A DNA stretch of 64,000 bases from Diplonema japonicum (Eukaryota > Protista > Euglenozoa: Diplonemea): contig OZ025699.1 of assembly GCA_964019335.1 (NCBI GenBank), positions 124,001-188,000 on the forward strand, read 5' to 3'. The notes under the pieces were generated by a model that did not search any database, was not told the origin of the DNA, and saw only the letters and a list, made by a program, of their open reading frames with translations. This document shows, in pieces, positions 23,382 to 52,930 of this stretch. Every line of letters starts with the position of its first letter. Position 1 is the first letter of the stretch. The position numbers were made by a program, and so were the translations under genes.

Positions 23382-23416
23382 GGAAAGAAAAGAAAAGAAA
23401 AGAAAAGAAAAGAAAA

Positions 23417-26308: not shown

Positions 26309-26449
26309 AGGGGCCCCGCAGAACAGGGGGAGCAGCAGATCCACGACCATGCTCCCTCTCCTAGTCTCCCTCGCATCCTCCCAAGGAGACTCCTACCTCT
26401 CTGTTTCTTCACCGACTTTTCTGCACTGATCCCCACCCTACTCGGGAGG

Positions 26450-33954: not shown

Positions 33955-34095
33955 AGGGGCCCCGCAGAACAGGGGGAGCAGCAGATCCACGACCATGCTC
34001 CCTCTCCTAGTCTCCCTCGCATCCTCCCCAGGAGACTCCTACCTCTCTGTTTCTTCACCGACTTTTCTGCACTGATCCCCACCCTACTCGGGAGG

Positions 34096-37000
34096 ATGTC
34101 CGTCAGGGACCTGCTGGGGCTGCTTGGGCTGGTCGAAACAAACCCTGGCCCACCCAAGAAGCTGCCGCCCCCGTCGCCTAAGGGTCTCAAGGTTGTCTCG
34201 TGGAACTGCAACGGCCTCGTTGCGAAATGGACCGTCGTATCTCGCCATGCTGACTTCTTGTCGCTGGACATCATCATGATACAGGAGACGCACCTGAGGG
34301 AAGGGCACGACACGCCACACCTGCCTGGGTACAGGTCATACAGGAGGGATCGGTTGACACCGGTGACTGACGGCACTGCGACGAGGGGTGGTGGTATTGT
34401 CACGTATGTCCGCGACGATCTTGCCTCGGAGGAGGTTCCGCACGTACTCCCGGCTGGGGACTGTGTCACTGAGAGACTGGATGTGAGGATCTCCTGCGAG
34501 AAGCGTGAGCCGATCACTCTCTCCAACGTTTACCTTACACCGGTAAGCGCGAGCAGAGGCACGAGGGACCCTGAGTACCTGCGGCCTGGCAGCCTTCCCA
34601 TGGGGAAGAACACAGTCATAGCGGGTGACTTCAATGCTCACCACAGCTCCTGGGACGCCACGGTGACGACGCCGAACGAGAGGGGGAACGTGGTCAGGGA
34701 CTGGCTGGACACCCACGGGTACACCGTCTACAACGACCGCAACGAACCGACGAGGGACTCGTCACGACACGTTCTGGACCTGGTTGTGGGGCGCTGCGCG
34801 AAGCTTGAGCCGAAGACGCTGGGCACGTGGGGCTCCGATCATAGTCCCGTATCCTTTCACCTGCCTCTTGAGGACGTCTACCGTTCGGAGCGCCCCTTCC
34901 CCACCTGGAATTTCAAAAAAGCCAGATGGGATGACTACACTGCTGCTGTTGCCCGCCTGCTTGCTGGTGTTGACACGGCGGCTCCGATTGACTCTGTCAC
35001 GAAGGGGTTTACACAAGCCCTTTTGACTGCGGCGAACGACCACATTCCCCTCTGTGGGATGCGACGTGGCCCGACCCCCTGGTGGACTGCTGAGCTCGAG
35101 GACGCCTTCGAAGAGCGGAACACCCTGCGCGAACTCCTGCTTCAAGAGGCGGACGTGGTGGAGGAGTACAGGGCGAAGGTGAAGGAAGTCAACCGACTCC
35201 TTGACGAGACGAAGCGTGAGGCATGGGGAAGGATGGCGGCCGACCTCAGCCGGAGCAAGGACCTCGGGGCTGCGTTCAGAGCGGTGAAGAAGCTGGACGG
35301 CAGGCACCGAAAGACACACCTTCCTGTACTCGAGGGAAGATTTGTGTCGGACAAGGCGAAGGCCGACCGGCTGGGGGCGCACTTCGCTAAGCTCTACGGC
35401 AGGCGTGGTGACGGGAACTCGAAGGACGCCGCTCCTTCTGCAAGCAGACTCGGGTGTCAAGCGTTCACCGTGGACGACCTCACCCGCGGCCTGAGAAGGA
35501 TGAAGACGCGCAGCGCGGCCGGGGAAGACGGAATCTTCTCGGAGATGCTCCTACACCTGAACTCGGACTCCCTCGGTGTCCTCCTTCTACTCCTCAATCG
35601 CTCCTGGCTGATGGGTGTCGTCCCCGGTGCCTGGAAGAAGGGAGTGATCGTCCCGGTACCGAAACCTGGAAAAGATGCGACTCTCTTGGCTTCCTACCGG
35701 CCGATCTGCCTGACCAGCTGCCTCTGCAAGCTGCTGGAGAGGATGATCGAGGAGAGGCTCACGTTTCTTCTTGACGCGGACGGGACGGGAGTCGAGGGAC
35801 TCCACGACAGCCAGGCTGGTTTCAGACGCGGCCGCTCCACGGAGGAGCAGGTGGCAACCCTCACTGAGTGCATGTCGAGGAACAAAGACGATCGACGTCT
35901 CTCGGCCGCTCTGCTGTTCGACTTCTCTTCTGCCTTCGACCTGGTGCCCCATGGTGCCCTGCTGGACAAGATGCGAGGGAAGGGTCTCCCCGAACCCTTC
36001 GTGGAGTGGACGCGGTCCTTTCTATGCGGCCGTACTGCTGCGGTCACGATTGGACGGTCGAGGGGGTCGACGACGAAGGTGCGACGGGGTGTCCCCCAGG
36101 GCTCTGTCTTGGGTCCCATCCTGTACACCATCTACGTCGACGAACTCGCCAGGAGACTGGAGGGACTGGCGGACGTCTCGGTGCTCTACGCCGACGACGT
36201 GGCGGTTGTGATCTCCTCTGGACAAGGGGACGTGGCTGGGCTGGAGCGGAAGGCGCAGGCAGTGGTGGATGCGGTTGAGGACTGGTGCAGGGAGCGTGAC
36301 ATGCTGCTGAGCACGTCCAAGACGCAGGCAGTCTGCGTCCCCCCCCAGAAACGTCTCGGGGTCTACTTCACTTCGTCACGAGTCCCCCTTCAGCCAGGTG
36401 CCTTCCAGAACCCACTCTTCGGCCTGGGGGTGAACGCCGATGGCACGATCTCCGGGGACCAGGAGCTGGCGGGCCTTCAGGTTGTGGAGGCGGGTGGTGT
36501 GCGGATCCGCTGCGTGCGGGACATGCATGCAGCCGTGCGACGGCCCGACGTGGACTACGTTGCGGCCCGTCCCCTGCCTCTGTCTGAACACGCGAGGTAC
36601 CTTGGGGTTACGGTGGACTCTGGGCTCACGTTCGGTGAACACGCACAGGACATCCTACGGCGGGCCAGCAAAAGGCTGAGGGTGCTGAAGCTCTTGTCCG
36701 GCACGTCCTGGGGCAGCAAGAGGGACACTCTGCGGTCTCTCTACGTTACGTACATCCTCCCGCTGCTGCGCTACTGCATGGGGGTCTACTACAGCAGGCT
36801 CGATGATGTCGGGAGGAAGGACCTGGCTGGGCTTCACCAGGAGGCGGCGGTGCTGATCACGGGCTGCTGGAGTGGCTCCGGAGGGTACAAGCTCCTAGCT
36901 GAGGCAGGACTGCTTCCCCTCGAAAGAATGGCGGAGGGTGCTGCGGCGACGATGACGGCGAAGGCCTTCTGCTGGCAGTCTTCCCCGGTTCACAGGGAGA

Positions 37001-38244
37001 CGGTCAAGCTGAAGCAGGCGAACAGGCTGGGGTGTGGGTGGCTGCGCTCTGGCTACCAAGCACTGCGTCGATGCGGGTTGGAACCAAAGGTGCACTTCGA
37101 GTACCTGTCGGCTACGCCCCTGGCGGCCCCGTGGCAGACAGGCATGGTCGACTTCAGGACTGACCTCCCCGGCGGGGTCACGCGATCGTCGCCAGACGCG
37201 GACAGGCGGAAGGCGGCCGAGGCTGCTCTTGCGGCTCTCCCCCCGGGCATCCATGCCTACACGGATGGCTCGGTTGTACAGGTCGGACAGAAGGCGAAAG
37301 GTGGCTCTGGGGTTTATCTGCAGCTGCCTCCCCCCCTGACCCCTGTGTCTGTGTGCCATGGCGTCAACGACTTCTGTTCATCTTTTCGGGCAGAGGGCAT
37401 GGCTGTGAAAACGGCGCTGGATATGGTGGCTACCCTCCGAAAAACACACCCTTCGCTGGCGAAGTCCCCGCTGTCGATCTGCACCGACTCCCTCTCCCTC
37501 GTCGAGCAGCTGCGAGCTGGCCCAACGCGACAGAGGGAGAAGCTCGACCACCAGACGTGGAGCCGGCTGGTGTCCGCGGCGCGCACGCAGGGGACACCGG
37601 TGGTCCTCCAGTTTGTGCCCTCCCACTGTGGGGTGGACGGGAACGAGAAGGCTGACGCTCTGGCCGGGGAGGGAACGAAGCGGAAGCAGGACAGGCCCTC
37701 CCTTGACTACCGATCAGTGAGGGCCCTGGTGCGACGGTGGGTGGTGCGGAGGTCCGCGGAGCTCATAACATCCCTCGCCCACAACTACGCGGTGGCGACC
37801 GAGCTTCGGTCTGCGCACTTCCCCCTTGGCTTCCCCAGACAAGCTGAAACGGTCATCTCGCGGCTGCGGATTGGTCACTCGGCTCTCTTCTTCGGCTTCC
37901 TGCAGACTGCTGGCCCGAACAGGAAGCACAAGGGTGTGCTCCGGTGCCCAGCCTGCCACGCAGCACCGATGTCCAGGGAGCATGTTGTCGGTGGGTGCCC
38001 TGTGATCGGGAGGGGGGCGATCGACACTCCTGCTGGTACTCCCTCCCTAGCGTTCTCCCTGTCGAGACGCGTGACCCAGATCTACGACCTCATTGTTGAG
38101 TCTGGCCTGCTCGCCTGGTCACGCTCCGGACTGTTCACCTCGCCATCATCCCTGGCGTCTACAGACGTCACTGCACCTTCGAACGTGCCGCCCCCTCCTC
38201 CGGTCTCTCTTGACGCCGGTCCCGCGGCCCCCGTGCTGCGCTAA
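34096..38244 (+). CDS. A3 ORF2: 2A-like, APE, RT, RNase H, CCHC (1382 aa)
   Basis: VETNPGP; SWNCNG, IQETH, GDFNAH; DFSSAFD, GVPQG, YADD; YTDGS, CTDS, PSHCGVDGNEKAD; CPAC..H..C. Confidence 0.95.
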   Translation: MSVRDLLGLLGLVETNPGPPKKLPPPSPKGLKVVSWNCNGLVAKWTVVSRHADFLSLDIIMIQETHLREGHDTPHLPGYRSYRRDRLTPVTDGTATRGGGIVTYVRDDLASEEVPHVLPAGDCVTERLDVRISCEKREPITLSNVYLTPVSASRGTRDPEYLRPGSLPMGKNTVIAGDFNAHHSSWDATVTTPNERGNVVRDWLDTHGYTVYNDRNEPTRDSSRHVLDLVVGRCAKLEPKTLGTWGSDHSPVSFHLPLEDVYRSERPFPTWNFKKARWDDYTAAVARLLAGVDTAAPIDSVTKGFTQALLTAANDHIPLCGMRRGPTPWWTAELEDAFEERNTLRELLLQEADVVEEYRAKVKEVNRLLDETKREAWGRMAADLSRSKDLGAAFRAVKKLDGRHRKTHLPVLEGRFVSDKAKADRLGAHFAKLYGRRGDGNSKDAAPSASRLGCQAFTVDDLTRGLRRMKTRSAAGEDGIFSEMLLHLNSDSLGVLLLLLNRSWLMGVVPGAWKKGVIVPVPKPGKDATLLASYRPICLTSCLCKLLERMIEERLTFLLDADGTGVEGLHDSQAGFRRGRSTEEQVATLTECMSRNKDDRRLSAALLFDFSSAFDLVPHGALLDKMRGKGLPEPFVEWTRSFLCGRTAAVTIGRSRGSTTKVRRGVPQGSVLGPILYTIYVDELARRLEGLADVSVLYADDVAVVISSGQGDVAGLERKAQAVVDAVEDWCRERDMLLSTSKTQAVCVPPQKRLGVYFTSSRVPLQPGAFQNPLFGLGVNADGTISGDQELAGLQVVEAGGVRIRCVRDMHAAVRRPDVDYVAARPLPLSEHARYLGVTVDSGLTFGEHAQDILRRASKRLRVLKLLSGTSWGSKRDTLRSLYVTYILPLLRYCMGVYYSRLDDVGRKDLAGLHQEAAVLITGCWSGSGGYKLLAEAGLLPLERMAEGAAATMTAKAFCWQSSPVHRETVKLKQANRLGCGWLRSGYQALRRCGLEPKVHFEYLSATPLAAPWQTGMVDFRTDLPGGVTRSSPDADRRKAAEAALAALPPGIHAYTDGSVVQVGQKAKGGSGVYLQLPPPLTPVSVCHGVNDFCSSFRAEGMAVKTALDMVATLRKTHPSLAKSPLSICTDSLSLVEQLRAGPTRQREKLDHQTWSRLVSAARTQGTPVVLQFVPSHCGVDGNEKADALAGEGTKRKQDRPSLDYRSVRALVRRWVVRRSAELITSLAHNYAVATELRSAHFPLGFPRQAETVISRLRIGHSALFFGFLQTAGPNRKHKGVLRCPACHAAPMSREHVVGGCPVIGRGAIDTPAGTPSLAFSLSRRVTQIYDLIVESGLLAWSRSGLFTSPSSLASTDVTAPSNVPPPPPVSLDAGPAAPVLR

Positions 38245-38756
38245 GGGATCGCCCGCGTGTGTGTAAAGTGAAATGTTGTGTTTTCCACTTTCCTTTCCCT
38301 TCCTTTCCCTTCCTTCACCTTCCTCTCACTGTTTCCCATTTCCCCTTTTTTTTTTATTTTCACACTCACCAATGATTCGCTCAATAGGAGCAATACCTCC
38401 CTGGGGGGCTTTCCGCCGGAGGTTCCAGCCAAAGAAGGACATCCAGCTGGAAGGTAGGCCCCCGTTTTTCTCTCACTTGACTGAGGGAATAATGTAATTC
38501 AGCCCTCTTCGGCTGTCCCAAAGCAGAGCACGGGTTGGTGGGGGACCAGGGCTCCTCCTGCTTGCAGAAGCCTGGTCCTTTGCCCTCCCTATTTCCCCAT
38601 GGTTTCCCTTCACCTTTTTTTCCCTTTTCTCAGGTGTTGCTCTCCATGGCGGCCCTGCATTGGTATTTTGAAAAAAAAAAAAAAAAAAAAAAAAAAAGCA
38701 GGTCAGCTAAAGAAAAGAAAAGAAAAGAAAAGAAAAGAAAAGAAAAGAAAAGAAAA

Positions 38757-39650
38757 ATGGGCAAGAAGAAAGACAAGCACAAGGAGAAGGCAAAGCCGGA
38801 AGGGAACGGGGCCAGCACGCAGCTGGCCCAGTCCAAGGCCAGGGAGGAGCGGCGGGTGGAGAGGATGCTCCGCAGCGCGGGAGCAGCCGGGGAGCTGGGG
38901 CAGCTCCTGACACCGGAGCACCGGGAGAAGATGACGGGGGTGGTCACCGTAATTGACCTCCTCACGCCCGACGCCGCCGCCGCTACAGCCGGCCCAGCGA
39001 CACCTGTCGCCTCCACCCCGACCGGCTCCGTCAAAAGGCCGGTTTCGCCTGACGCCAGCGTCGCCACCCCGACCTCCAGCAAAAAAGCTAGGAGGAAGGC
39101 CGCCAGAGCCGCGCGCGCTGACGCTGCCGCCGAAGCCGCACACATAGCTGACGCCACACACCCCCTCGAAGCCGCACGCACTGCGGCCGACGTCGAACTC
39201 GCGGGAATCGCTGCTGATTTGGAAGCTGCACGCGAGTCGGCCGACGTGGTAGCTGCAGAAATAGCAGCTAAGATGAAGGCTGCGCAGGAGGTGGCTGATG
39301 CTGCTGTTGTCAAAATGGCAGCCGAGACGGAAGCTGCACGCGTGGCTGGTGTGGAGGCTGCTCGCAGAGCAGTCGAGGCAGAGGAGAAGGCTCTGCGCGA
39401 GCGGTCTACTGCACGACTTGCGGCAGAGGAGAAGGAGGCTGCGCGTGCTGCGGCCGAGATGAAAGCAGCCGAGGAGAAGAAGGCTACAGCCGCAGCCGCT
39501 GCAGCCGAGAAGAAGAAAGCCGCAGCCGCCGCCGCCGCCGAGAAGAAGGCCGACGCCGAGAAGAAAGCAGCAGCCGCCGCCGCCGCCGAGAAGAAGGCCG
39601 CAGCCGCCGCCGCCGCCGAGGAGAAGGCCGCCGCCGAGAAGAAAGCCGCA

Positions 39651-39681
<31 letters not shown>

Positions 39682-41618
39682 AGAAGGAGACCGCAGCCGC
39701 AGCCGCCGCCGCCGAGGAGAAGAAGAAGGTCGCAGCCACCGCCGCCGCCGAAAAGGAAGCCGCCGCAGCCGCTGCCAAAAAGGAGGAAGCTTTGAGGTTG
39801 GCGGCCGCCAAGAAGGCAGATGCCCAGAAGGTCGAGGACGAAGCAGTCGCGAACGCTTCCGCCAACGCGTCAACAGACCAAGGCACGCTCCTCCTCAGCT
39901 CAGACTCTGACACCAGCTCTGGCCCTGAGGAGATGGAGGACGACCCTGCCCCTGCCCCTTCCACAACCCCGCGATGGGACCTGGTGCCAGACACATGGGA
40001 CGCCCCGATCTACACTAACGTGTCCCCCCCGACGGAAACATCCCGCGCTGTCATTGCGCTCGACGATCCCTCCGGAATGGGGGTCGTGTGCTCCGCGTTA
40101 CCTACGGCATCCATCACCTTTGTCCTTATGACAGAGGTCCCCGGTGTCACCACCCCCAGCGAGATTGTCATGGTCTCTGGGTCGCGCGCAGTGAACAGGA
40201 GGGTCCACGTCTCCACGTTCGGGCTGGACCCCCCCACCTACACCCCGCCTTCCACCTTCAACAGCGGATCGGAGGTCGTCTACGTCTGTGTCAGTGCAGA
40301 CAGCCTGAAGGAGGCGAAGGCCAGGGTCCTGGAGCTCGCCAAGGCTCAGGGCGCGGTGGTGGAGGATCGTGCGGTCTTCCGCCCAAGGAAGTTCGGTGAG
40401 GAGGAACCGCGGGCGAGGCACTGGACCCACGAGGTGGGGCTGCGCCTGCAAGCATCACACGTCCACGCCGTCCTGCGCCGGTCCGGGGACGGGTGCATGA
40501 TCCGGACGACGGAGAGACGCGGGGGGTACGCTTATGTACCCATCGTGGCGGAAGGGAGGGCGGATGCCTTTCGGATTGCGGGGACGCTGGGTGGGTTGTC
40601 TCTCGGGGTGGCGCACCGTAAGGGATGGACTGTGCGGTGCCTACCGGAGACGGAACAGCGGCTCCGGGAAACCCTCGCAAAACTGCGTACGAAGCGCAAG
40701 TTTTTGCTCACCGGGGCCCCGCCGTCCATCACCAGGGCGGCCTTCGATGAAATGATGGACCACATCGGCTGGAAACCATCCTCCGTCCTGCGGCGCACGC
40801 AGACGATGTTCCAGGGCACGAGGCAACTCGTGTTCTTCATCGTCGTCGACAGCCCGCCCCCGAAGTCCAGGACGTGGCTCCTTGGGGGGCGCCTTGTCTG
40901 CCTCCGTGATGCGGACGACCACCCGACCGTCAAGCCGCCCCCTCTCATCAACAGGACGACACCTGCATCTGCACCTGCGCTTGCAACGTCCTCGACCCCG
41001 GCACCCACATCTTCTCATGTACCTGCACCTGCGCCTACACCTGTACCTGACCCGGCACCTGTATCGGCGTCGACACCCTCGGGGACTGACCCTGCGGTGA
41101 AAGCAACTGGGCTTCCTCCCACCAGCCCGTGGGCGTCCATACCGAGCTCGGTGGCTCCCCCCCAGCTCGACACTGTGACGTCCCCTACACCGCCCCGCAA
41201 CGTGTCTGGGGGAAACAAGGAGGGGGTCCCTTCCGGGTCGCCTGAGGTCGCCGCTCTCACTGAGCTCGTCGCCACGCTGAAGGAGTCGATCGTCGGGCTG
41301 CAGAGGACGATCGACTCTCAGCAGGAGATGATCTCCGATCTGCGGACGACGCTCCGCCTCCTCCTGCCGCAGGCGGCCACGCTGACGACGGGAACGGCAG
41401 TGCCGCGGGACCCTACACCGGGGGCGACGACGACACACGACAGTGTCTGGAAAGGGAAGGGGAAGGGGAAGAAGGGGGCTCCTCCTCTCGCTACGACCTC
41501 TGAGGCTGCGGTGACGAACCTGGGTACGAGGGGGCGGGCCAGGTCGTTCGCGGAGACCAAAGATCTCTTCACCAATGGGGTCAAGGGGCGCTCTGCCTCC
41601 ATGGGTCCATCCAATTGA
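38757..41618 (+). CDS. A4 ORF1
   Basis: Same protein with a rearranged Ala-repeat block. Confidence 0.9.
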
Positions 41619-41759
41619 AGGGGCCCCGCAGAACAGGGGGAGCAGCAGATCTACGACCATGCTCCCTCTCCTAGTCTCCCTCGCATCCTCCCCAGGAGAC
41701 TCCTACCTCTCTGTTTCTTCACCGACTTTTCTGCACTGATCCCCACCCTACTCGGGAGG

Positions 41760-44700
41760 ATGTCCGTCAGGGACCTGCTGGGGCTGCTTGGGCTGGTCGA
41801 AACAAACCCTGGCCCACCCAAGAAGCTGCCGCCCCCGTCGCCTAAGGGTCTCAAGGTTGTCTCGTGGAACTGCAACGGCCTCGTTGCGAAATGGACCGTC
41901 GTATCTCGCCATGCTGACTTCTTGTCGCTGGACATCATCATGATACAGGAGACGCACCTGAGGGAAGGGCACGACACGCCACACCTGCCTGGGTACAGGT
42001 CATACAGGAGGGATCGGTTGACACCGGTGACTGACGGCACTGCGACGAGGGGTGGTGGTATTGTCACGTATGTCCGCGACGATCTTGCCTCGGAGGAGGT
42101 TCCGCACGTACTCCCGGCTGGGGACTGTGTCACTGAGAGACTGGATGTGAGGATCTCCTGCGAGAAGCGTGAGCCGATCACTCTCTCCAACGTTTACCTT
42201 ACACCGGTAAGCGCGAGCAGAGGCACGAGGGACCCTGAGTACCTGCGGCCTGGCAGCCTTCCCATGGGGAAGAACACAGTCATAGCGGGTGACTTCAATG
42301 CTCATCACAGCTCCTGGGACGCCACGGTGACGACGCCGAACGAGAGGGGGAACGTGGTCAGGGACTGGCTGGACACCCACGGGTACACCGTCTACAACGA
42401 CCGCAACGAACCGACGAGGGACTCGTCACGACACGTTCTGGACCTGGTTGTGGGGCGCTGCGCGAAGCTTGAGCCGAAGACGCTGGGCACGTGGGGCTCC
42501 GATCATAGTCCCGTATCCTTTCACCTGCCTCTTGAGGACGTCTACCGTTCGGAGCGCCCCTTCCCCACCTGGAATTTTAAAAAAGCCAGATGGGATGACT
42601 ACACTGCTGCTGTTGCCCGCCTGCTTGCTGGTGTTGACACGGCGGCTCCGATTGACTCTGTCACGAAGGGGTTTACACAAGCCCTTTTGACTGCGGCGAA
42701 CGACCACATTCCCCTCTGTGGGATGCGACGTGGCCCGACCCCCTGGTGGACTGCTGAGCTCGAGGACGCCTTCGAAGAGCGGAACACCCTGCGCGAACTC
42801 CTGCTTCAAGAGGCGGACGTGGTGGAGGAGTACAGGGCGAAGGTGAAGGAAGTCAACCGACTCCTTGACGAGACGAAGCGTGAGGCATGGGGAAGGATGG
42901 CGGCCGACCTCAGCCGGAGCAAGGACCTCGGGGCTGCGTTCAGAGCGGTGAAGAAGCTGGACGGCAGGCACCGAAAGACACACCTTCCTGTACTCGAGGG
43001 AAGATTTGTGTCGGACAAGGCGAAGGCCGACCGGCTGGGGGCGCACTTCGCTAAGCTCTACGGCAGGCGTGGTGACGGGAACTCGAAGGACGCCGCTCCT
43101 TCTGCAAGCAGACTCGGGTGTCAAGCGTTCACCGTGGACGACCTCACCCGCGGCCTGAGAAGGATGAAGACGCGCAGCGCGGCCGGGGAAGACGGAATCT
43201 TCTCGGAGATGCTCCTACACCTGAACACGGACTCTCTCGGTGTCCTCCTTCTACTCCTCAATCGCTCCTGGCTGATGGGTGTCGTCCCCGGTGCCTGGAA
43301 GAAGGGAGTGATCGTCCCGGTACCGAAACCTGGAAAAGATGCGACTCTCTTGGCTTCCTACCGGCCGATCTGCCTGACCAGCTGCCTCTGCAAGCTGCTG
43401 GAGAGGATGATCGAGGAGAGGCTCACGTTTCTTCTTGACGCGGACGGGACGGGAGTCGAGGGACTCCACGACAGCCAGGCTGGTTTCAGACGCGGCCGCT
43501 CCACGGAGGAGCAGGTGGCAACCCTCACTGAGTGCATGTCGAGGAACAAAGACGATCGACGTCTCTCGGCCGCTCTGCTGTTCGACTTCTCTTCTGCCTT
43601 CGACCTGGTGCCCCATGGTGCCCTGCTGGACAAGATGCGAGGGAAGGGTCTCCCCGAACCCTTCGTGGAGTGGACGCGGTCCTTTCTATGCGGCCGTACT
43701 GCTGCGGTCACGATTGGACGGTCGAGGGGGTCGACGACGAAGGTGCGACGGGGTGTCCCCCAGGGCTCTGTCTTGGGTCCCATCCTGTACACCATCTACG
43801 TCGACGAACTCGCCAGGAGACTGGAGGGACTGGCGGACGTCTCGGTGCTCTACGCCGACGACGTGGCGGTTGTGATCTCCTCTGGACAAGGGGACGTGGC
43901 TGGGCTGGAGCGGAAGGCGCAGGCAGTGGTGGATGCGGTTGAGGACTGGTGCAGGGAGCGTGACATGCTGCTGAGCACGTCCAAGACGCAGGCAGTCTGC
44001 GTCCCCCCCCAGAAACGTCTCGGGGTCTACTTCACTTCGTCACGAGTCCCCCTTCAGCCAGGTGCCTTCCAGAACCCACTCTTCGGCCTGGGGGTGAACG
44101 CCGATGGCACGATCTCCGGGGACCAGGAGCTGGCGGGCCTTCAGGTTGTGGAGGCGGGTGGTGTGCGGATCCGCTGCGTGCGGGACATGCATGCAGCCGT
44201 GCGACGGCCCGACGTGGACTACGTTGCGGCCCGTCCCCTGCCTCTGTCTGAACACGCGAGGTACCTTGGGGTTACGGTGGACTCTGGGCTCACGTTCGGT
44301 GAACACGCACAGGACATCCTACGGCGGGCCAGCAAAAGGCTGAGGGTGCTGAAGCTCTTGTCCGGCACGTCCTGGGGCAGCAAGAGGGACACTCTGCGGT
44401 CTCTCTACGTTACGTACATCCTCCCGCTGCTGCGCTACTGCATGGGGGTCTACTACAGCAGGCTCGATGATGTCGGGAGGAAGGACCTGGCTGGGCTTCA
44501 CCAGGAGGCGGCGGTGCTGATCACGGGCTGCTGGAGTGGCTCCGGAGGGTACAAGCTCCTAGCTGAGGCAGGACTGCTTCCCCTCGAAAGAATGGCGGAG
44601 GGTGCTGCGGCGACGATGACGGCGAAGGCCTTCTGCTGGCAGTCTTCCCCGGTTCACAGGGAGACGGTCAAGCTGAAGCAGGCGAACAGGCTGGGGTGTG

Positions 44701-45908
44701 GGTGGCTGCGCTCTGGCTACCAAGCACTGCGTCGATGCGGGTTGGAACCAAAGGTGCACTTCGAGTACCTGTCGGCTACGCCCCTGGCGGCCCCGTGGCA
44801 GACAGGCATGGTCGACTTCAGGACTGACCTCCCCGGCGGGGTCACGCGATCGTCGCCAGACGCGGACAGGCGGAAGGCGGCCGAGGCTGCTCTTGCGGCT
44901 CTCCCCCCGGGCATCCATGCCTACACGGATGGCTCGGTTGTACAGGTCGGACAGAAGGCGAAAGGTGGCTCTGGGGTTTATCTACAGCTGCCTCCCCCCC
45001 TGACCCCTGTGTCTGTGTGCCATGGCGTCAACGACTTCTGTTCATCTTTTCGGGCAGAGGGCATGGCTGTGAAAACGGCGCTGGATATGGTGGCTACCCT
45101 CCGAAAAACACACCCTTCGCTGGCGAAGTCCCCGCTGTCGATCTGCACCGACTCCCTCTCCCTCGTCGAGCAGCTGCGAGCTGGCCCAACGCGACAGAGG
45201 GAGAAGCTCGACCACCAGACGTGGAGCCGGCTGGTGACCGCGGCGCGCACGCAGGGGACACCGGTGGTCCTCCAGTTTGTGCCCTCCCACTGTGGGGTGG
45301 ACGGGAACGAGAAGGCTGACGCTCTGGCCGGGGAGGGAACGAAGCGGAAGCAGGACAGGCCCTCCCTTGACTACCGATCAGTGAGGGCCCTGGTGCGACG
45401 GTGGGTGGTGCGGAGGTCCACGGAGCTCATAACATCCCTCGCCCACAACTACGCGGTGGCGACCGAGCTTCGGTCTGCGCACTTCCCCCTTGGCTTCCCC
45501 AGACAAGCTGAAACGGTCATCTCGCGGCTGCGGATTGGTCACTCGGCTCTCTTCTTCGGCTTCCTGCAGACTGCTGGCCCGAACAGGAAGCACAAGGGTG
45601 TGCTCCGGTGCCCAGCCTGCCACGCAGCACCGATGTCCAGGGAGCATGTTGTCGGTGGGTGCCCTGTGATCGGGAGGGGGGCGATCGACACTCCTGCTGG
45701 TACTCCCTCCCTAGCGTTCTCCCTGTCGAGACGCGTGACCCAGATCTACGACCTCATTGTTGAGTCTGGCCTGCTCGCCTGGTCACGCTCCGGACTGTTC
45801 ACCTCGCCATCATCCCTGGCGTCTACAGACGTCACTGCACCTTCAAACGTGCCGCCTCCTCCTCCGGTCTCTCTTGACGCCGGTCCCGCGGCCCCCGTGC
45901 TGCGCTAA
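41760..45908 (+). CDS. A4 ORF2: 2A-like, APE, RT, RNase H, CCHC
   Basis: Only a few substitutions relative to A3 ORF2. Confidence 0.95.
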   Translation: MSVRDLLGLLGLVETNPGPPKKLPPPSPKGLKVVSWNCNGLVAKWTVVSRHADFLSLDIIMIQETHLREGHDTPHLPGYRSYRRDRLTPVTDGTATRGGGIVTYVRDDLASEEVPHVLPAGDCVTERLDVRISCEKREPITLSNVYLTPVSASRGTRDPEYLRPGSLPMGKNTVIAGDFNAHHSSWDATVTTPNERGNVVRDWLDTHGYTVYNDRNEPTRDSSRHVLDLVVGRCAKLEPKTLGTWGSDHSPVSFHLPLEDVYRSERPFPTWNFKKARWDDYTAAVARLLAGVDTAAPIDSVTKGFTQALLTAANDHIPLCGMRRGPTPWWTAELEDAFEERNTLRELLLQEADVVEEYRAKVKEVNRLLDETKREAWGRMAADLSRSKDLGAAFRAVKKLDGRHRKTHLPVLEGRFVSDKAKADRLGAHFAKLYGRRGDGNSKDAAPSASRLGCQAFTVDDLTRGLRRMKTRSAAGEDGIFSEMLLHLNTDSLGVLLLLLNRSWLMGVVPGAWKKGVIVPVPKPGKDATLLASYRPICLTSCLCKLLERMIEERLTFLLDADGTGVEGLHDSQAGFRRGRSTEEQVATLTECMSRNKDDRRLSAALLFDFSSAFDLVPHGALLDKMRGKGLPEPFVEWTRSFLCGRTAAVTIGRSRGSTTKVRRGVPQGSVLGPILYTIYVDELARRLEGLADVSVLYADDVAVVISSGQGDVAGLERKAQAVVDAVEDWCRERDMLLSTSKTQAVCVPPQKRLGVYFTSSRVPLQPGAFQNPLFGLGVNADGTISGDQELAGLQVVEAGGVRIRCVRDMHAAVRRPDVDYVAARPLPLSEHARYLGVTVDSGLTFGEHAQDILRRASKRLRVLKLLSGTSWGSKRDTLRSLYVTYILPLLRYCMGVYYSRLDDVGRKDLAGLHQEAAVLITGCWSGSGGYKLLAEAGLLPLERMAEGAAATMTAKAFCWQSSPVHRETVKLKQANRLGCGWLRSGYQALRRCGLEPKVHFEYLSATPLAAPWQTGMVDFRTDLPGGVTRSSPDADRRKAAEAALAALPPGIHAYTDGSVVQVGQKAKGGSGVYLQLPPPLTPVSVCHGVNDFCSSFRAEGMAVKTALDMVATLRKTHPSLAKSPLSICTDSLSLVEQLRAGPTRQREKLDHQTWSRLVTAARTQGTPVVLQFVPSHCGVDGNEKADALAGEGTKRKQDRPSLDYRSVRALVRRWVVRRSTELITSLAHNYAVATELRSAHFPLGFPRQAETVISRLRIGHSALFFGFLQTAGPNRKHKGVLRCPACHAAPMSREHVVGGCPVIGRGAIDTPAGTPSLAFSLSRRVTQIYDLIVESGLLAWSRSGLFTSPSSLASTDVTAPSNVPPPPPVSLDAGPAAPVLR

Positions 45909-46391
45909 GGGATCGCCCCGTGTGTGTGTGTTAAATGGAATGTTGTGTTTCCCACTTTCCTTTCCCTTCCCTTCCTTTCCCTTCCCTTCCCTTCCTTTCC
46001 CTTCCTTCTCCTTCCTCTCACTGTTTCCCATTTCCCCTTTTTTTTCACACTCACCAATGATTCGCTCAATAGGAGCAATACCTCCCTGGGGGGCTTTCCG
46101 CCGGAGGTTCCAGCCAAAGAAGGACATCCAGCTGGAAGGTAGGCCCCCGTTTTTCTCTCACTTGACTGAGGGAATAATGTAATTCAGCCCTCTTCGGCTG
46201 TCCCAAAGCAGAGCACGGGTTGGTGGGGGACCAGGGCTCCTCCTGCTTGCAGAAGCCTGGTCCTTTGCCCTCCCTATTTCCCCATGGTTTCCCTTCACCT
46301 TTTTTTTTCCCTTTTCTCAGGTGTTGCTCTCCATGGCGGCCCTGCATTGGTATTTTGAAAAAAAAAAAAAAAAAAAAAAAGCAGGTCAGCT

Positions 46392-46464
46392 TCCCCCTTG
46401 GCGCAGTCGGTAGCGCGTCAGGCTGTTAACCTGCAGGTCGTTGGTTCGAACCCAACAGGGGGAG
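46392..46464 (+). tRNA. tRNA-Asn(GTT)
   Basis: Acceptor TCCCCCT/AGGGGGA, D-arm GCGC/GCGC, anticodon loop CTGTTAA, GGTTCGAACCC T-arm, downstream T5. Confidence 0.95.
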
Positions 46465-46513
46465 TATTTTTAGATGCACGTCTCGAGACGTGCACCAAGT
46501 TCTTTGAAAAGAA

Positions 46514-46585
46514 TTCCCCGGCCGGGAATTGAACCCGGGTCATCCGCGTGACAGGCGGATATACTGACCTCTATACTACCGAGGA
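46514..46585 (-). tRNA. tRNA-Asp(GTC)
   Basis: Minus strand TCCTCGGTAGTATAG...CCGCCTGTCACGCGG...GGTTCAATTCCCGGCCGGGGA; T4 downstream. Confidence 0.95.
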
Positions 46586-47052
46586 GATGTTTTTTTTTTA
46601 ATAATAATAAATATTCCACTACCAGGCGGGAGGATCGAAGGGGAGTAGAGAAAACCATTCAAGGGAAAGGGAAAGGGACATCACTTCAAACCAAGAGAGG
46701 TGTTTGAAAGTGATTCGTGAAAAGCAGTCTCTGTTACTGAGCCATTGGTCGAGGGGTCCTGGTCCGCTGCTCCCTGTAGTAAATTACTTGGACCCCCTCA
46801 CCACGCTCTTTTCATAATAAAATAAAACCGATCCCACCCACCAGGCAGCACCTGGGTCTCGAGGCATTAGCCGCCTCTAGTAACAAGAGACGACCTCCCA
46901 GATTTTAAGAACTTTGGAGGAGTTTCAATTGTGAATAATTAACCAGCTGACTGTGAAACTCCACCGTCTGCTGGACTTGTTGGGCTTTCGGGAGCCAATA
47001 AATTCAATTCAATTAAGTTTCGTTCTTCAGTTTTTTTTTTTTTTTTTTTTTT

Positions 47053-47085
<33 letters not shown>

Positions 47086-47408
47086 TTCTCAAAATAAAGG
47101 AATTCAAATCAAGCTCGATTGTGTACACCGAAGCTTGAATCATCTGTCCTTCTTTTTTTTCTTTTTTTTTTTTTCTTTTTTCTTTCTATATGAAAGGTGA
47201 GTGAAAAATTTGAATAACACTGGGGGCGGGGGACAGGGGCCTGGTAATGGAAAATAAGGGAAGACACTGGGGAGGGAGGTGAAAAGAAAGGATAGGAGTG
47301 AAGCCAGAGTCGAGAGATTGAGTTAGAAACAATTGCTGTCTGAAGTCGTTTAACAACTTCAGACCTCAATGTTTGGAGAGTATAACATATTATAATTTAT
47401 AAGTTTTT

Positions 47409-50400
47409 TCACAATGTTCCCTGCCGCTCCAAGAGCTGGGCGGTCTTACAGGCGTCGGTGGACAGGAGGACTTTGAGGGAAGGAAGGGAGCTACCGAAGA
47501 TCTGACTCCTTTGGTCGATCCTCTTTCCGTCTTGGCATTCCCGTAGGAGGTGGCTTAGAGTCTGGGGTTGCGAACATAGATGGCACGGGACCTCCTCGAC
47601 TGGGGGTATGAGTAGGTATCCGCAAGTGAGTGGGCTCTTCCCCACCCTCAGCCTCATGATCGCCACTTCTTTCTTTCTGTCCAGCTCCTCGAACTTCTCG
47701 TAACTTCCGGCAAACTGCTCCCTGTACGTCTTTGTGACGCCAGTATCCTTCCATAGGCGGAGGTGGCTTCTGATGACATGCTTCCTCACCAGAGTTTTAA
47801 CCACCTCAATGTCTGTCTCACGGGTGTGGGCCAGTCTTTCGCTCGCCTCTTTTGCCTTCTGGTCCGCCTTCTCGTTCCACTTGTACCCGCAGTGACTCGG
47901 GACGTATTGAACGATTAGCTTGTGGCCTCTGCCTGTCAAGCTCGCGACCTCCTGCCAGAGTTCGAAGTCATCTTTGGAGGCTGCCGACATGTGTCCCTGG
48001 CACATCTTCCGTATCACCGACTGCGAATCTGTGCATATCAGAACCATCCCTTGGCTTGCAAGCTTCCTCTCTGAGAGTCTTGTCGCCAGTCGGATCCCTA
48101 GCCTCAGGGCCCTGAGTTCGCATTTGTAGGATGTCGAATACAGTCCACCGCTGATCCCGTAGGCAGCATCGGACCCGTTGTGCAGCAGGATGGCGGCCGA
48201 GCCTCCGTTTTTCCCATCCTTTACGGACCCGTCTGTGAACACCATGCAGAATGCCCGGCCGTGTTTCTCGCATAACCTGTTCAGGGTGTTCGTTGTTGCC
48301 TCTTTCCTGACCTCTTTTGGGTCCGTCCTTTTCACCTGCGTGTCTAGGAAGGGGGAGAGCACGAGTTGCCCCTCGAATCTTTGCCAGGGTGCAACCGCGA
48401 GTCTCCTCATGAAGACGGCGCCCGAGTGAGGTGTGCCCGTCCTCTCTGGGAGTTTGTAGGCTTTCGATGCCTCTCTCTGTTTGTCAGACCAAGTCCTCCT
48501 TGGTAGGAGCTTCTCGTACCTGGTCAGATCCTCCAGAGGCTGAGTCGCCTGGTATGCGGCGGTGTCCACTTTTCTCATCAGTGACTCGTAGAGCAACAGG
48601 CTGTCGTGTTCGATCAGCGCATCCAGGGTCCACAGCCCCGCTTCGTTCAGTGTCGCGAATGTCTCTGATGACGCGATGCAGCCTGTGATCTTCACCGCTG
48701 CCCTGTATTGAAGCTTCTTGATGCCTTCGTGGGGCGTGTTCCTCCCGCTCGGGAGAAATGACCCGTACACGCCCAAGCAGTATCTGAAGACTGGTTGCAC
48801 ATATGTGAGGTATAGAGCCCTCAACACCACCTTCTTGCAACCCCATCTCGTTCCCGCAAGGCAGCTCAGCAGCCTGACCCTGCTTTCACCTCTTTCCAAG
48901 ACGTCTCTGGAGTGTTCGGAGAAAAGCATGTCCTCCTCGAAGGTGACTCCGAGCAGCTTTGTTTTTTCGACCACCTCGAGTTCTTCGCCGGTCTTGAAAG
49001 TTGCTCTGATCTTCCCCTTCAGTGTTCTCTGCGGATAGGAGATGCCAGCAACGGGAAGGAACTCTGTCTTTCCCTTGGAGATCACCATCGAGTTTCTCGA
49101 GCACCAGCTCTCCACAACCCTCAGGATCTTCATCAGTTTTCCATTCAAGCTGTCCAGGTCTTTTTCGTGCAGCACCACCGCAATGTCGTCTGCGTACATC
49201 ACGGCATCAATGCCCTCCTTTTCGAACGTCTCTGAGAGGTCGTCCATGTAGATCGAGAAGAGGGTTGGGGCAAGGATGGTTCCCTGTGGAACCCCACCCG
49301 TTATGTGTTCGTGCTTCCCTGTTTCGCCACTCACCTTGACGGCAGCGATCCTCTGGTCTAGGAAAGCGGCCACCCAGTCCGTAATTCTTTGCGGGTAGCC
49401 ATTACTCCTCATTTTCGCATTTAGACCCTTGTGCCACACTGTGTCGAAGGCTCCTTTCAGGTCGAAGAGCAAAAGTCCGCCGCAGAACTCATCGTCTCTG
49501 ATGCGGTTCAGTTTCGTGGTCACTTGCAGGACGTTCTCTTCTGTGGAGCGCCCTTTCCTGAAACCTGACTGCATTTTGTGCACCCTCTTCACATCTCCCA
49601 CGTCTTGGTGGTAGTCGACCCTTATCTTTACTATCCTCTCCATTGTCTTTGAAATGTTGGAGGTTAGCGATATCGGTCTGTACGATGCCGGATCACTTCT
49701 TGACTTGCCCTTTCCTTTGTAAAGTGGGATTATGTGCGTGAACCTCCAGTCTGATGGTACCACTCCCTTCTCCCATGACATATTGAACAGATGGAGTAAT
49801 GTGTCCATGGCCGTCCCCCCCAGGTGTTTCAGCATCTCGTTGTAGACACCGTCTGGGCCCGGGGATTTCCCCTTCTTCAACTGCCTCAGCGCGTGCTTCA
49901 GTTCCTCCATGCTTATCCCTGGGCAAGTGACCCTGTCCCTCAAGTCCTTGATCACTTTGGACTTCCTGTTTTCACCGTCCAGCATCTTCTTTGTGTCCTT
50001 GTTAAGGTGGGGTGCAAAAGCCTTTGCGTAGTGCTCCACAAGGACGTCTGCTTTTTGCTTCGCCGATGTGTGTAGCTTGCCGCCTGCCATTAGTGGTGCT
50101 ACTGGATCTTTGTCCTTCCTGCCATCGAGCGTTTTTATCGTCCTGAAAGCGTGTCCCAAGTCCTTTTTCTGAGACAGCTCCTTCATGTAGTCGGCCCACG
50201 CTCTTTTCTTCCCTTCATCGATCTGTTTCTGCACTTGCCTGCTGATTTCACCAAGCCTCTCGCATTGTTCTATCGATGGGATGCCGATGTCCGACATAAT
50301 CTCCTTCTTCAGAGCGTTTCTTCTTCCAACCAGTTGCGTCAGCTCTTCAGTCCACCACGCTTTCCCGCCTCTCGCTCCCCCTCTTGGGATGAAGAGCCTG

Positions 50401-51401
50401 GCGGCCTCCTTGACGGCTTCAGTGAACTGCTTGTTTAACCTGACCGGGTCTCCTGTTCTCTGCAGGTGCCTCAGGGTGTACTCCAGATGATTCCTGTACC
50501 CCTCCCAGTCAGCTTTTTTGAAGCTGAATTTCTTAATGGTTGGTCCGGTTTCGTATTTCGTTCTTATCCGGATGGACATGGGTATGTGGTCAGACCCCCA
50601 TGAATCGAGGGTTGTCCAGGATCTAGAGTCCATGTCTGGCCCGCTTATCACCAGGTCCGGTGATGATAAGGAACCTCTTGTGTTCAATAGTGTCGGTGTG
50701 GCTTTGTCATTCCAGGGTCGCATCCCTTTCTCGATCATCCACTTTGCGACTTTGTCACCTATGAGGTCCTCTTTCTTTCTTCTCCCGTCCCACAGAGGGT
50801 GGTGGGCGTTGAAATCCCCCATGATTAAGGTTCTGTCCCCTGTCGGGAGTGTGTTCGGGTTGAAGTAGGTGTCGATGCTCGGTCTGTCATCGCTCGGATC
50901 TGACGGCGATGTTGGTGGAAGGTAGATGTTCACCAGGAGGATCTCCTTTTGACCTGGCGGGTATATCTTGACGTCCAGTCTTTCCGTCACGTCATTTTTC
51001 TTCTCCTTCCTTTCGACACCGCTAGCGTTGATGCCTTCTTTCACGAGAGTCAGTAAGCCGCCCCCTTTTATGGGGAAATTCCTCCTTCTCGGTCGCGTCC
51101 TGTCTCTTCGGAAAGCTCTGTACCCTTCGAACCAGCCGTGGATCGCATCGTCTGATGTTAGGTGTGTCTCTTGGAGACACAGGATGTCCGGCGCTGTTTC
51201 TTCGATAGCCTTCTCGATTTCGGCCTTCCTAGCTCTGAGGGACCTCACGTTCAGCGAGACTATCTTCAGCCATCCGTCTTTCGCGGCTGGCCCCGGGTTC
51301 TGCTCGACGTCACCGCACGCCAAGATGTCCATATCATGTGGTCCGCAACCTTTGCGCATCTTTCTCGGTGTGGTCGAGGGTCGTTTCAGCATGTATGTCA
51401 C
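47409..51401 (-). CDS. B2 ORF2: 2A, APE, RT, RNase H, CCHC
   Basis: MDILACGDVEQNPGP; YADD; FTDGS..CTDSQS..VPSHCG; CHLC. Confidence 0.95.
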   Translation of the reverse strand: MTYMLKRPSTTPRKMRKGCGPHDMDILACGDVEQNPGPAAKDGWLKIVSLNVRSLRARKAEIEKAIEETAPDILCLQETHLTSDDAIHGWFEGYRAFRRDRTRPRRRNFPIKGGGLLTLVKEGINASGVERKEKKNDVTERLDVKIYPPGQKEILLVNIYLPPTSPSDPSDDRPSIDTYFNPNTLPTGDRTLIMGDFNAHHPLWDGRRKKEDLIGDKVAKWMIEKGMRPWNDKATPTLLNTRGSLSSPDLVISGPDMDSRSWTTLDSWGSDHIPMSIRIRTKYETGPTIKKFSFKKADWEGYRNHLEYTLRHLQRTGDPVRLNKQFTEAVKEAARLFIPRGGARGGKAWWTEELTQLVGRRNALKKEIMSDIGIPSIEQCERLGEISRQVQKQIDEGKKRAWADYMKELSQKKDLGHAFRTIKTLDGRKDKDPVAPLMAGGKLHTSAKQKADVLVEHYAKAFAPHLNKDTKKMLDGENRKSKVIKDLRDRVTCPGISMEELKHALRQLKKGKSPGPDGVYNEMLKHLGGTAMDTLLHLFNMSWEKGVVPSDWRFTHIIPLYKGKGKSRSDPASYRPISLTSNISKTMERIVKIRVDYHQDVGDVKRVHKMQSGFRKGRSTEENVLQVTTKLNRIRDDEFCGGLLLFDLKGAFDTVWHKGLNAKMRSNGYPQRITDWVAAFLDQRIAAVKVSGETGKHEHITGGVPQGTILAPTLFSIYMDDLSETFEKEGIDAVMYADDIAVVLHEKDLDSLNGKLMKILRVVESWCSRNSMVISKGKTEFLPVAGISYPQRTLKGKIRATFKTGEELEVVEKTKLLGVTFEEDMLFSEHSRDVLERGESRVRLLSCLAGTRWGCKKVVLRALYLTYVQPVFRYCLGVYGSFLPSGRNTPHEGIKKLQYRAAVKITGCIASSETFATLNEAGLWTLDALIEHDSLLLYESLMRKVDTAAYQATQPLEDLTRYEKLLPRRTWSDKQREASKAYKLPERTGTPHSGAVFMRRLAVAPWQRFEGQLVLSPFLDTQVKRTDPKEVRKEATTNTLNRLCEKHGRAFCMVFTDGSVKDGKNGGSAAILLHNGSDAAYGISGGLYSTSYKCELRALRLGIRLATRLSERKLASQGMVLICTDSQSVIRKMCQGHMSAASKDDFELWQEVASLTGRGHKLIVQYVPSHCGYKWNEKADQKAKEASERLAHTRETDIEVVKTLVRKHVIRSHLRLWKDTGVTKTYREQFAGSYEKFEELDRKKEVAIMRLRVGKSPLTCGYLLIPPVEEVPCHLCSQPQTLSHLLRECQDGKRIDQRSQIFGSSLPSLKVLLSTDACKTAQLLERQGTL

Positions 51402-51404
51402 TCT

Positions 51405-51575
51405 GCCTTTGTGGTCACCCCTACCTTCAGGTCTTCGAAGATAGGGTTGTACGACTTGGGGGGGGCCGGCCCTAACAGACCTTACGTCGCCACCACTAAC
51501 GCCTTGTCCCGTTTGGACACCCCTATACGTGCGGGGCCGGCCAGGATTTAGCCGCGAGTTGTAGCCAAGTCGTAC
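51405..51575 (-). promoter_or_regulatory. Conserved structured intergenic RNA (putative IRES), copy in B2
   Basis: Homologous to 11862-12028; stems conserved, loops variable. Confidence 0.7.
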
Positions 51576-51815
51576 GAGCTTCCTTCGCGCAGAGAGATGA
51601 CATTGCTGTGACCCGTTGTCGTCGTCGTCGTCGTCGTCGTGTATTATTTTTTTTTTATTTTTATATTTTTTTTTTGTTGTTTTTTTTTTTTTTCTCTTGT
51701 TCTTTTATTTTCTTTATGTTTTTTTTTTTGTTTTTGTTTTTTTTTTTATGGTTTTTTTTTTTTTTTTTTTTTTTTATTATTTTTTTTTTTGTAGACGAAT
51801 TGGGGGGTTGGGGGC

Positions 51816-52713
51816 TTAATAGGGAAACACTTTCTTTTTTCTTTTTTTTTTCTGCAGGGGTTGGATGCTGGTCTGGACGGCTGCCAGTCCTTCCCCCTGC
51901 TTCAGCACCGCCTCCCCTTGCGCACTGACCTGTTTCTGCAGGGCCGGGTAACTGGACTGTGCTTCTGCCAGAGACGTCCTCTGTCTCTGCAGTTCCTCTC
52001 TCTGCGCGGTGATCTCCTGTCTCTGCGCCGAGAGTTCGGCCCTCTGTGCCGCAACTTCTTGATGCAGATTCTGCATCTGGGCTACCATATCTGGCGAGAT
52101 TGTTGCCTGTTGTTGCTGTTGTTGGGGGGGCTCCTGTGTGTTTTTTTGGGGTGTGGCGGTCCTCTTCCTCCACTCTTCTACTGCCTTGCAGTAGAGCTGC
52201 CACCCTACCGACCGGCCGTAGAATTCCAGAAATTCTTCTGGGCTGTACCTGTCTTGGTGGACTTTTGTTCTTTTTTTTTTTTCTTCCCCCTTCCTCGACC
52301 ACTTCTTCCCTCCTGCAGCCCTGGACTCCAGGGGGTCGGCCACCTTTATCGCCGGCAGGACTTCTGCCGTGGCGCCGTTCACCTTGATGCAGGTGTGGTG
52401 GGGGGGGGTGCGTGCGGTGTAGAGGAGGAAGGACGCGCCGCGCCTTCCGTCGTCAGGATACGACCTTCTCGGTCTGCTCTGAGACCGTTGCTGCGAGAAT
52501 CGCAGCTGCGCCCTTCTCCTCCACTCCCTTCGGCAGCGGACCGATGATCCAGTTGCCCTTCCGCACCTCGTCCTTCTTCTCCTTCTTCTTCTCTTCCTCT
52601 TCTTCGAATACCAGATTTAACTCTGGCATCGCCGCGGCTTCTTCGTCCACCTGCATCTGCAGGCTGTCCAGTGGGGGCCTCGTGGAGGCGTCCGCGCTGG
52701 TCTGCTGATCCAT
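51816..52713 (-). pseudogene. B2 ORF1, frameshifted (52453-52713 plus 51816-52382), C-terminus shortened
   Basis: FLEFYGRSVGWQLYCKAVEEWRKR motif followed by a Q-rich coiled-coil. Confidence 0.65.
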
Positions 52714-52776
52714 TTTTATAAATTTTTATTAAAATTTATTATGTGATAGTGTATCAGACCCCCCACCAAAAGTTTA

Positions 52777-52882
52777 GAGGATACAGCACCAGGGCTTCCC
52801 ACGTGATCACTCACCGCAGTACTAACCTGGCCTGCTGGTGCTTAACTTCCCAAATCAGGCGGGATGGGGGGCATTCACCAGA
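52777..52882 (-). rRNA. 5S rRNA, lacking about the first 13 nt (probable pseudogene)
   Basis: Minus strand GAATGC..ATCCCG..GATTT..GAAGTTAAGC..GGCC..GTTAGTAC..GTGAT..GGGAAG..GTGCTGTATCCT; resembles euglenozoan 5S; T4 downstream. Confidence 0.88.
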
Positions 52883-52883
52883 C

Positions 52884-52930
52884 CAGCATTCATTATTATA
52901 CCGGCGCATCCGGTATAATAATGAATGCTG
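52884..52930. repeat. Perfect inverted repeat with 21-bp arms and 5-nt spacer
   Basis: CAGCATTCATTATTATACCGG-CGCAT-CCGGTATAATAATGAATGCTG. Confidence 0.95.

Follow-up and report, generated by a model that had tools for sequence, protein, structure and literature searches.

In the euglenozoan protist Diplonema japonicum we found young long interspersed nuclear elements (LINEs) whose 3′ ends lie short, fixed distances ahead of tRNA genes. The elements come from 64,000 nt of contig OZ025699.1 (positions 124,001 to 188,000; this stretch is called the window, and all coordinates are counted from its first letter), an island of retroelements that surrounds a 5S rRNA gene copy and two tRNA genes lying tail to tail. 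They form two families, A and B, of a diplonemid LINE clade, and they probably reach their sites by tethering to the RNA polymerase III (Pol III) machinery. One copy (A4) is flanked by a target site duplication (TSD) that ends at the tRNA gene, open reading frames (ORFs) are retained in A3, A4 and ORF2 of B2, and the same geometry recurs in front of other tRNAs with unlike flanks.

LINE 3′ ends in front of tRNA genes

The features at the two tRNA genes are as follows.

38698..38708, plus strand: 5′ copy of the 11-bp A4 TSD, which doubles as 3′ flank of A3
38709..46380, plus strand: LINE A4, full length
46381..46391, plus strand: 3′ copy of the A4 TSD, positions –11 to –1 of tRNA-Asn
46392..46464, plus strand: tRNA-Asn(GTT), intact (Rfam)
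46475..46494, no strand: perfect 20-bp palindrome between the terminators of the tail-to-tail tRNA genes
46514..46585, minus strand: tRNA-Asp(GTC), intact (Rfam; +1 at 46585)
46586..46589, minus strand: 4-nt spacer between the B2 poly(A) and tRNA-Asp +1
46590..52740, minus strand: LINE B2, apparently full length, with a deduced 5′ end
52778..52891, minus strand: copy of the 5S rRNA gene, damaged at its 5′ end; 37 nt separate it from the deduced 5′ end of B2

An earlier note on this DNA, made from the sequence alone, had claimed that A4 is flanked by a TSD identical to positions –11 to –1 of tRNA-Asn, that the B2 poly(A) ends 4 nt before tRNA-Asp, and that both elements are co-oriented with their tRNA genes and leave them intact. 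All of this is borne out. The 11-mer GCAGGTCAGCT occurs only twice in the 64 kb (38698–38708 and 46381–46391), bracketing A4, each copy lies directly 3′ of a poly(A) run (A27 and A23), and the acceptor stem of tRNA-Asn begins at 46392 according to Rfam (ARAGORN places the gene at 46391–46465). On the opposite strand, 4 nt separate the B2 poly(A) (T10, 46590–46599) from tRNA-Asp +1. A4 runs in the direction of tRNA-Asn and B2 in that of tRNA-Asp, and both genes retain their A and B boxes. From a hand count of nine element 3′ ends in the window, we estimate the chance of a co-oriented 3′ end at most 15 nt away at ~1e–3 per tRNA and ~1e–6 for both, uncorrected for the choice of window. The letters at 46587–46590 recur at 52741–52744, that is, at both B2 ends, and make up a candidate 4-bp TSD; because of this repeat, the empty B2 site would have been a 5S-tRNA-Asp cluster with a 38-nt spacer.

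Two further claims need qualification. The A3 poly(A) does abut the 11-mer, from which repeated use of the site had been concluded; however, this is the same physical copy as the 5′ TSD of A4, and its left edge cannot be set within the poly(A). The two sites were also said to share no target sequence, which holds for the flanks but not for the tRNAs, both of which begin with TCC and have a standard A box.

Junctions at other loci were sought in contigs from five of 22 public runs (X1, X10, X11 and X12 in a first mapping, 20 of 79 loose ends; X10, X11, X12 and X3 in a second, 22 of 35). The library type of the runs is not stated, X10 and X11 are two samples of one study, and regions without contig cover were not taken as absence. 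X1 may be the source of the window itself; its record 7 covers both tRNAs and 33 letters upstream. In the second mapping, X11 has depth over 46373–46392, and the other three runs have none before the first tRNA base. Upstream sequence of a tRNA-Asn- or tRNA-Asp-like gene is seen in 8 of the 22 second-mapping rows, representing seven distinct contexts. Two of these seven contain a family-A 3′ end. In one (X10 and X11, 46587), the family-A 3′ end and a 15-A tail stand exactly 11 nt ahead of another tRNA-Asp copy, and the 11-mer there matches that of the window at 4 of 11 positions. In the other (X11, 46599), a family-A 3′ end lies ~4 nt ahead of tRNA-Asp, the short register of B2, which fits an A copy added ahead of a B copy. 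The remaining five are unoccupied tRNA flanks: no poly(A) occurs within the 30 letters listed.

Sequence 3′ of a B tail is seen in seven rows, two of which run into tRNA-like 5′ halves. A B tail of a diverged subfamily in X3 (46586 and record 29) is followed by a spacer of ~5 nt (or as many as 15, because two mismatches are unplaced) and a tRNA-like 5′ half consisting of 7 nt, an A-box-like stretch and a D stem. In X11 (46607), a B tail is followed by A7, 11 nt, 7 nt and then a TRGY start at tRNA positions 8–11 (TRGY background, 0.011 per position). The last five spacer letters of this X11 junction match 31065–31069, which offers a post hoc lead to an origin of the A2/A3 junction at another tRNA locus. 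One X10 row (46600) passes from a B tail without poly(A) through 12 nt into a stretch that may resemble a selenocysteine-tRNA start. The remaining 7 of the 22 rows are tRNA 3′ flanks or internal variants. Exact-motif scans for A and B 3′ ends in metagenome contigs returned zero stretches, and a related-locus search of viral contigs confirmed none of 80 candidates; a genome-contig match to an element 3′ end was dismissed as a chance 20-mer without a tail in a bacterial metagenome-assembled genome.

Thus a fixed distance is found, in small numbers, in front of several different tRNAs with unrelated flanks. The proposed position specificity gains from the same 11-nt register at a second tRNA with another flank. 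We regard tRNA-directed insertion as very likely for family A and, with less assurance, as probable for family B.

The stack of family A copies and the alternatives to tethering

Further members of the two families fill much of the window.

1..5917, minus strand: LINE A1, extending beyond the window edge; ahead of it a 79-nt B tail and A36, fused to truncated element C
10406..10628, minus strand: isolated B 3′ tail; poly(A), then 30 nt, then the A-rich leader of element C; no tRNA
18616..23361, plus strand: LINE B1, 5′ part removed by a Penelope-like element; poly(A) at 23331–23361
23362..31029, plus strand: LINE A2, one ORF2 frameshift; 5′ end directly abuts the B1 poly(A)
31030..31070, plus strand: A2/A3 junction; non-A words 31030–31035 and 31065–31070 around a duplicated purine leader
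31071..38697, plus strand: LINE A3 with both ORFs open; the 11-mer adjoins its 3′ end but is missing from its 5′ junction

The four A copies differ pairwise by 0.17–0.68% substitutions and private indels, A4 being farthest from the others (A2, A3 and A4 differ among themselves by 0.4–0.65%, plus indels). This divergence means that the array is neither one collapsed repeat nor a fresh duplication; a collapsed array, which the earlier note had named as fatal to its own proposal, is thereby ruled against. A4 is not a tandem duplicate of A3, as 44 of 7544 sites differ in addition to indels, nor a retro-chimera of a LINE and a pre-tRNA, given the 11-mer on both sides. The B-tail/A1 junction is the same as the B1/A2 junction, and A1 is closest to A3 although it shares the B-tail junction of A2. 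Variable sites conflict as well: A3 groups with A1 near 40497–40502 and with A4 near 41021–41447, and A4 groups with A1 at 41652. Because the sites group the copies incompatibly, they point to recombination among A copies. The 5′ junctions of A2 and A3 lack the 11-mer. Hence the claim that tandem arrays were built upstream of the tRNAs survives as far as the co-oriented stack goes, but the array was not wholly built in place, since neither B1/A2 nor A2/A3 (31030..31070) has a tRNA-Asn flank. The likeliest history is one in which stacks formed at several tRNA genes and copies then exchanged sequence.

Several observations weigh against tRNA-directed insertion. The B1/A2, A2/A3 and B-tail/C junctions carry no tRNA-Asn flank, and the first two are not derivable from it. 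Only two of the six A and B poly(A) ends in the window (A4 and B2) touch a tRNA, while that of A3 touches the TSD. None of the four second-mapping runs gives any depth over the palindromic spacer that separates the tRNAs, and no empty 5S-tRNA-Asp allele is seen among the contig rows listed. The other B-tail rows comprise one A-type leader (X10), one apparent start codon (X12), one unplaced sequence and two mixed consensuses. The two tRNA-like 5′ halves were judged from 30 letters, and a 19-letter motif of the X3 tRNA-like flank has zero matches in viral contigs. Template switching in an RNA library is a possible source of the X10 and X11 junctions. Finally, A contigs were detectable only where they overlap a tRNA, as the A poly(A) is masked in the first mapping; the A junctions are therefore evidence of precision, not of frequency.

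The main rival to tethering is direct reading of DNA, in which ORF2 itself would recognize either the 5′ end of the tRNA or its A box and make its nick at a set distance upstream with no host tether. A sequence-specific class of non-LTR (non-long-terminal-repeat) elements is described and distinguished from tethered targeting, and Dewa is named there for a tRNA-Leu spacer (PMC3706591). Both A targets begin with TCC, the three 11-nt spacers agree at –11 and –6, and a one-base register is tighter than the 44–54-bp window of the Dictyostelium element TRE5. However, the duplicated flanks agree pairwise at just 3–5 of 11 positions, the junctions involve no fewer than three different tRNA 5′ ends, and both families occur in both registers, so that we consider direct reading unlikely. 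An insertion preference of a looser kind, for poly(A) tails and A-rich leaders in repeat islands that happen to hold tRNAs, with nesting and unequal recombination, would account for B1/A2, B-tail/A1 and B-tail/C, which join a poly(A) to the leader of another element, and for a like B-to-A junction in X10 (row 46591); the window is packed with retroelements, and five tRNA flanks are unoccupied. Yet stacking at a tRNA predicts tail-to-leader junctions likewise, and the exact 11-nt register at two tRNAs with non-A flanks is left unexplained (chance of 2e–8 to 2e–5 per tRNA, assuming 250 Mb of genome with 10 to 10,000 copies); we give this preference little weight. An artefact that combines a misassembled array with library chimeras of poly(A) RNA and pre-tRNA leaders is highly improbable: 7.6-kb repeats of >99% identity are indeed hard to assemble, no contig spans an element and the spacer between the tRNAs is covered only in X1, possibly the window's own source, but each copy has private substitutions and indels, the 11-mer on both sides of A4 is unlike a chimera, and the same A/tRNA-Asp junction is seen in two samples.

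We infer tethering because the flanks are unlike and because TRE5-A and Ty3 provide precedents; ORF1 of TRE5-A binds TFIIIB subunits and the element requires box B (PMC5911963). Trypanosomatids have TBP, Brf1, Bdp1 and TFIIIC (PMC11894013). In the model that we favour, the element ribonucleoprotein would dock on TFIIIC, TFIIIB or Pol III at a tRNA gene, and the APE endonuclease would nick the bottom strand 11 nt (or 4–5 nt) ahead of the mature tRNA; this nick, which may coincide with the transcription start, would prime reverse transcription on the poly(A). A top-strand cut at about –1/+1 would then generate the TSD. Because the A and B boxes are internal, both gene and target would survive, and the next copy could enter between the previous one and the tRNA, so that co-oriented stacks would grow with the newest copy closest to the gene; recombination between 99%-identical copies would later reshuffle the older junctions. 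With A-rich leaders of only 27–48 nt, the elements would need read-through transcription, and their co-oriented position may supply it. Polycistronic transcription in diplonemids is supported (bioRxiv 10.64898/2026.07.29.740908). The fullest version of this model is tentative and may well claim too much: a diplonemid LINE clade unrelated to those of dictyostelids would dock with single-base precision on the Pol III initiation complex, cut both where tRNA transcription begins and at the boundary of the mature 5′ end, rebuild its target and exploit the co-oriented position as a promoter-free landing pad, with several families queuing head-to-tail ahead of tRNA genes.

Coding content, affinities and neighbouring elements

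A4 begins with a 48-nt leader of (AAAAG)n, followed by ORF1 (38757–41618), in-frame ORF2 (41619–45908; 2A-like motif, APE, reverse transcriptase (RT), RNase H and CCHC), a 3′ untranslated region (UTR) and an A23 tail (46358–46380). The two A ORFs share a frame interrupted by a single TGA, past which it is open up to the first ATG at 41760, so translation across 41616–41760 would involve read-through or re-initiation. At 46270–46322 (plus strand) the A 3′ UTR contains a long pyrimidine tract followed by AG that resembles a trans-splice acceptor, and one X10 contig links 46062 to 46321; such a site could serve RNA processing of the next stacked copy. B2 has a 27-nt A/T leader, a first ATG at 52713 and an ORF1 region that is not one intact frame, and continues with an A-rich tract, a structured RNA, a 2A peptide, ORF2 (frame 51704–47409; APE, RT, RNase H, CCHC), a 3′ UTR and A10. 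B1 (18618–23330) and B2 (46600–51290) are 67–83% identical in ORF2 and 92–99% identical in the last 800 nt, and the diverged X3 element has only the last 45 nt in common with B; 3′ tails appear to have been swapped between families.

Three diverged LINE families carry the structured RNA, in each case after ORF1 and before the 2A peptide.

51420..51575, minus strand: structured RNA ahead of the 2A peptide, common to B2 and elements C and F

Its copies (51420–51575, minus; 8868–9027, minus; 11862–12021, plus) measure ~130–160 nt and are 80–82% identical. They share an 11-bp closing helix with one compensatory change; such changes affect 4 of 52 predicted pairs. The B2 copy has no Rfam match, and a fold of the hepatitis delta virus type was rejected by eye because the helix order does not fit (z-score –1.2). 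The RNA may act as an internal ribosome entry element, or it may be a ribozyme not yet described.

Pfam finds APE, RT and RNase H in one protein in ORF2 of A3, A4, B1 and B2, and the ORF2 alignment shows the catalytic motifs in place and a single CCHC motif. The closest homolog of A ORF2 is a Diplonema ambulator transcript (44% identity); B has homologs in D. ambulator and D. papillatum and among Rhum-labelled proteins (29–41% identity), and no dictyostelid-named sequence is among the homologs listed. A 2A peptide precedes APE as DVExNPGP in B2, C and F and in degenerate form in A1–A4. The motif is present in 3 of the 22 homologs from the diplonemid clade, in 7 of the 19 from the trypanosomatid group and in none of the 15 others, counts that predicted starts may lower by cutting it off. 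The middle region of A ORF1 matches no Pfam family, its Atlas matches score <0.8, and among representative sequences it matches only itself and, weakly, one other; the predicted model (mean predicted local distance difference test score 33.7) was left unused.

We placed the elements in an RT-region tree of 71 rows, hand-chosen from 379 fetched proteins and those of the window and built with a quick search, and in a 39-row subset. A, B and C fall within a diplonemid clade with strong support (SH-aLRT, the Shimodaira–Hasegawa-like approximate likelihood ratio test, 99 in both; 100/98 in a re-run of the subset), A and B being distinct lineages inside it. The sister group is unsettled: the approximately unbiased test rejected neither the Leishmania/Leptomonas group (P-value 0.34), a wider group (0.15) nor a tick/insect group (0.25). 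The ingi and L1Tc sequences were not among the rows, and the Leishmania/Leptomonas rows were taken as INGI by elimination. The label Ingi-like, used in the earlier note, is apt for the APE-RT-RNase H set and the 2A peptide, but an ORF1 is present and there is no Pr77-type leader. INGI elements have a single ORF, whereas A has a 953-codon ORF1 and B2, C and F have an upstream ORF1-like region; in place of a 77-nt Pr77-type 5′ leader, A4 has 48 nt of AAAAG repeats and B2 27 nt of A/T. Rfam scans returned no ribozyme family, the Pr77 sequence itself not being part of the comparison. Ingi-like would thus describe a domain set rather than a demonstrated membership.

The Penelope-like ORF that truncates B1 (12648–18635, minus strand, 1995 codons) has weak N-terminal GIY-YIG and RT matches and a long C-terminal extension. 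At 10628/10629 a B tail (minus) and element F (plus) are fused back to back. Elements to the left of this point run leftwards, and the B1–A4 stack runs rightwards; because all of the former run leftwards, a second stack ending beyond position 1 is suggested. Two LINEs of another lineage (54420–61400 and 62002–64000, both minus strand) have no RNase H match. Element D ends in (CCCTT)n-type repeats, and the start of its ORF1, which has no Pfam match, presumably resembles an OTU protease motif. D was considered as a 5S-adjacent insertion and discarded, as ~1.5 kb lie between its end and the 5S copy. A short non-coding stretch located between elements D and E (61556–61835, plus strand) ends in A21 and is possibly an insertion like a short interspersed nuclear element. 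An inverted repeat with 21-bp arms (52884–52934) overlaps the damaged 5′ end of the 5S copy.

Relation to known tRNA-associated elements

The precedents given in the earlier note, TRE and Ty3, stand, but the nearest one was missed. Dp_NLTR-A of Dictyostelium purpureum, described together with Pp_NLTR-B, lies 2–6 bp upstream of mature tRNAs (16 of 28 copies listed with a distance; PMC5006619) and is likewise a non-LTR element of ~7.4 kb with RNase H after RT (PMC5006619, PMC5911963). B2 falls inside its window (4 nt) and A4 outside (11 nt); compared by description, the two cases differ in eukaryotic supergroup and in the 11-nt register of family A. The TRE5-A/B/C and TRE3 elements of Dictyostelium discoideum resemble ours in having ORF1, an APE/RT ORF2 and a placement relative to tRNA genes (PMC5911963). 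However, TRE5 inserts 44–54 bp upstream in the opposite orientation and TRE3 downstream, and RNase H is not listed for TRE5-A in the parts of that source covered (PMC5911963); here the poly(A) end faces the tRNA at 4–11 nt in the same orientation, which does not match TRE5. Ty3 and DGLT-A insert ~15 bp upstream of mature tRNAs, near the Pol III start, and TFIIIB contact is shown for Ty3 (PMC5006619), but they are integrase-based LTR elements and do not use target-primed reverse transcription.

Ingi and L1Tc, of the INGI clade, share with the diplonemid elements the APE-RT-RNase H order, poly(A), TSDs, a 2A-like peptide before APE and a euglenozoan host, and differ in their one ORF, their 77-nt 5′ promoter/ribozyme and the C2H2 fingers of L1Tc (PMC12278014, PMC5814959), where ours combine an ORF1 with short A-rich leaders and a single CCHC motif. 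The passages covered mention no tRNA targeting of INGI elements, and the word tRNA occurs zero times in the text of PMC5814959 that was available. For D. papillatum, LINE ORFs and 211 tRNA genes are reported (PMC10161547); the parts of that paper covered contain no targeting analysis, and its repeat section (Additional file 1) may bear on novelty. The accessible text of PMC12171722 does not deal with transposons. By title and start of abstract, a search of mainly open-access literature, Repbase excluded, returned no tRNA-targeting LINE in Euglenozoa.

In the literature searched, as far as its texts were covered, position-specific targeting of tRNA genes by non-LTR elements is described in dictyostelids only. 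The euglenozoan case would be a further origin, probably an independent one, with a geometry not given for the known cases: the poly(A) end toward the gene, a TSD ending at the mature tRNA start and a target that is rebuilt. Young intact copies and a diplonemid model that can be transformed make it testable whether base-level precision comes from a host complex or from reading of DNA. Overall, we suggest that these elements may be relevant to safe-harbour insertion tools and to mapping of the Pol III start complex in these protists.

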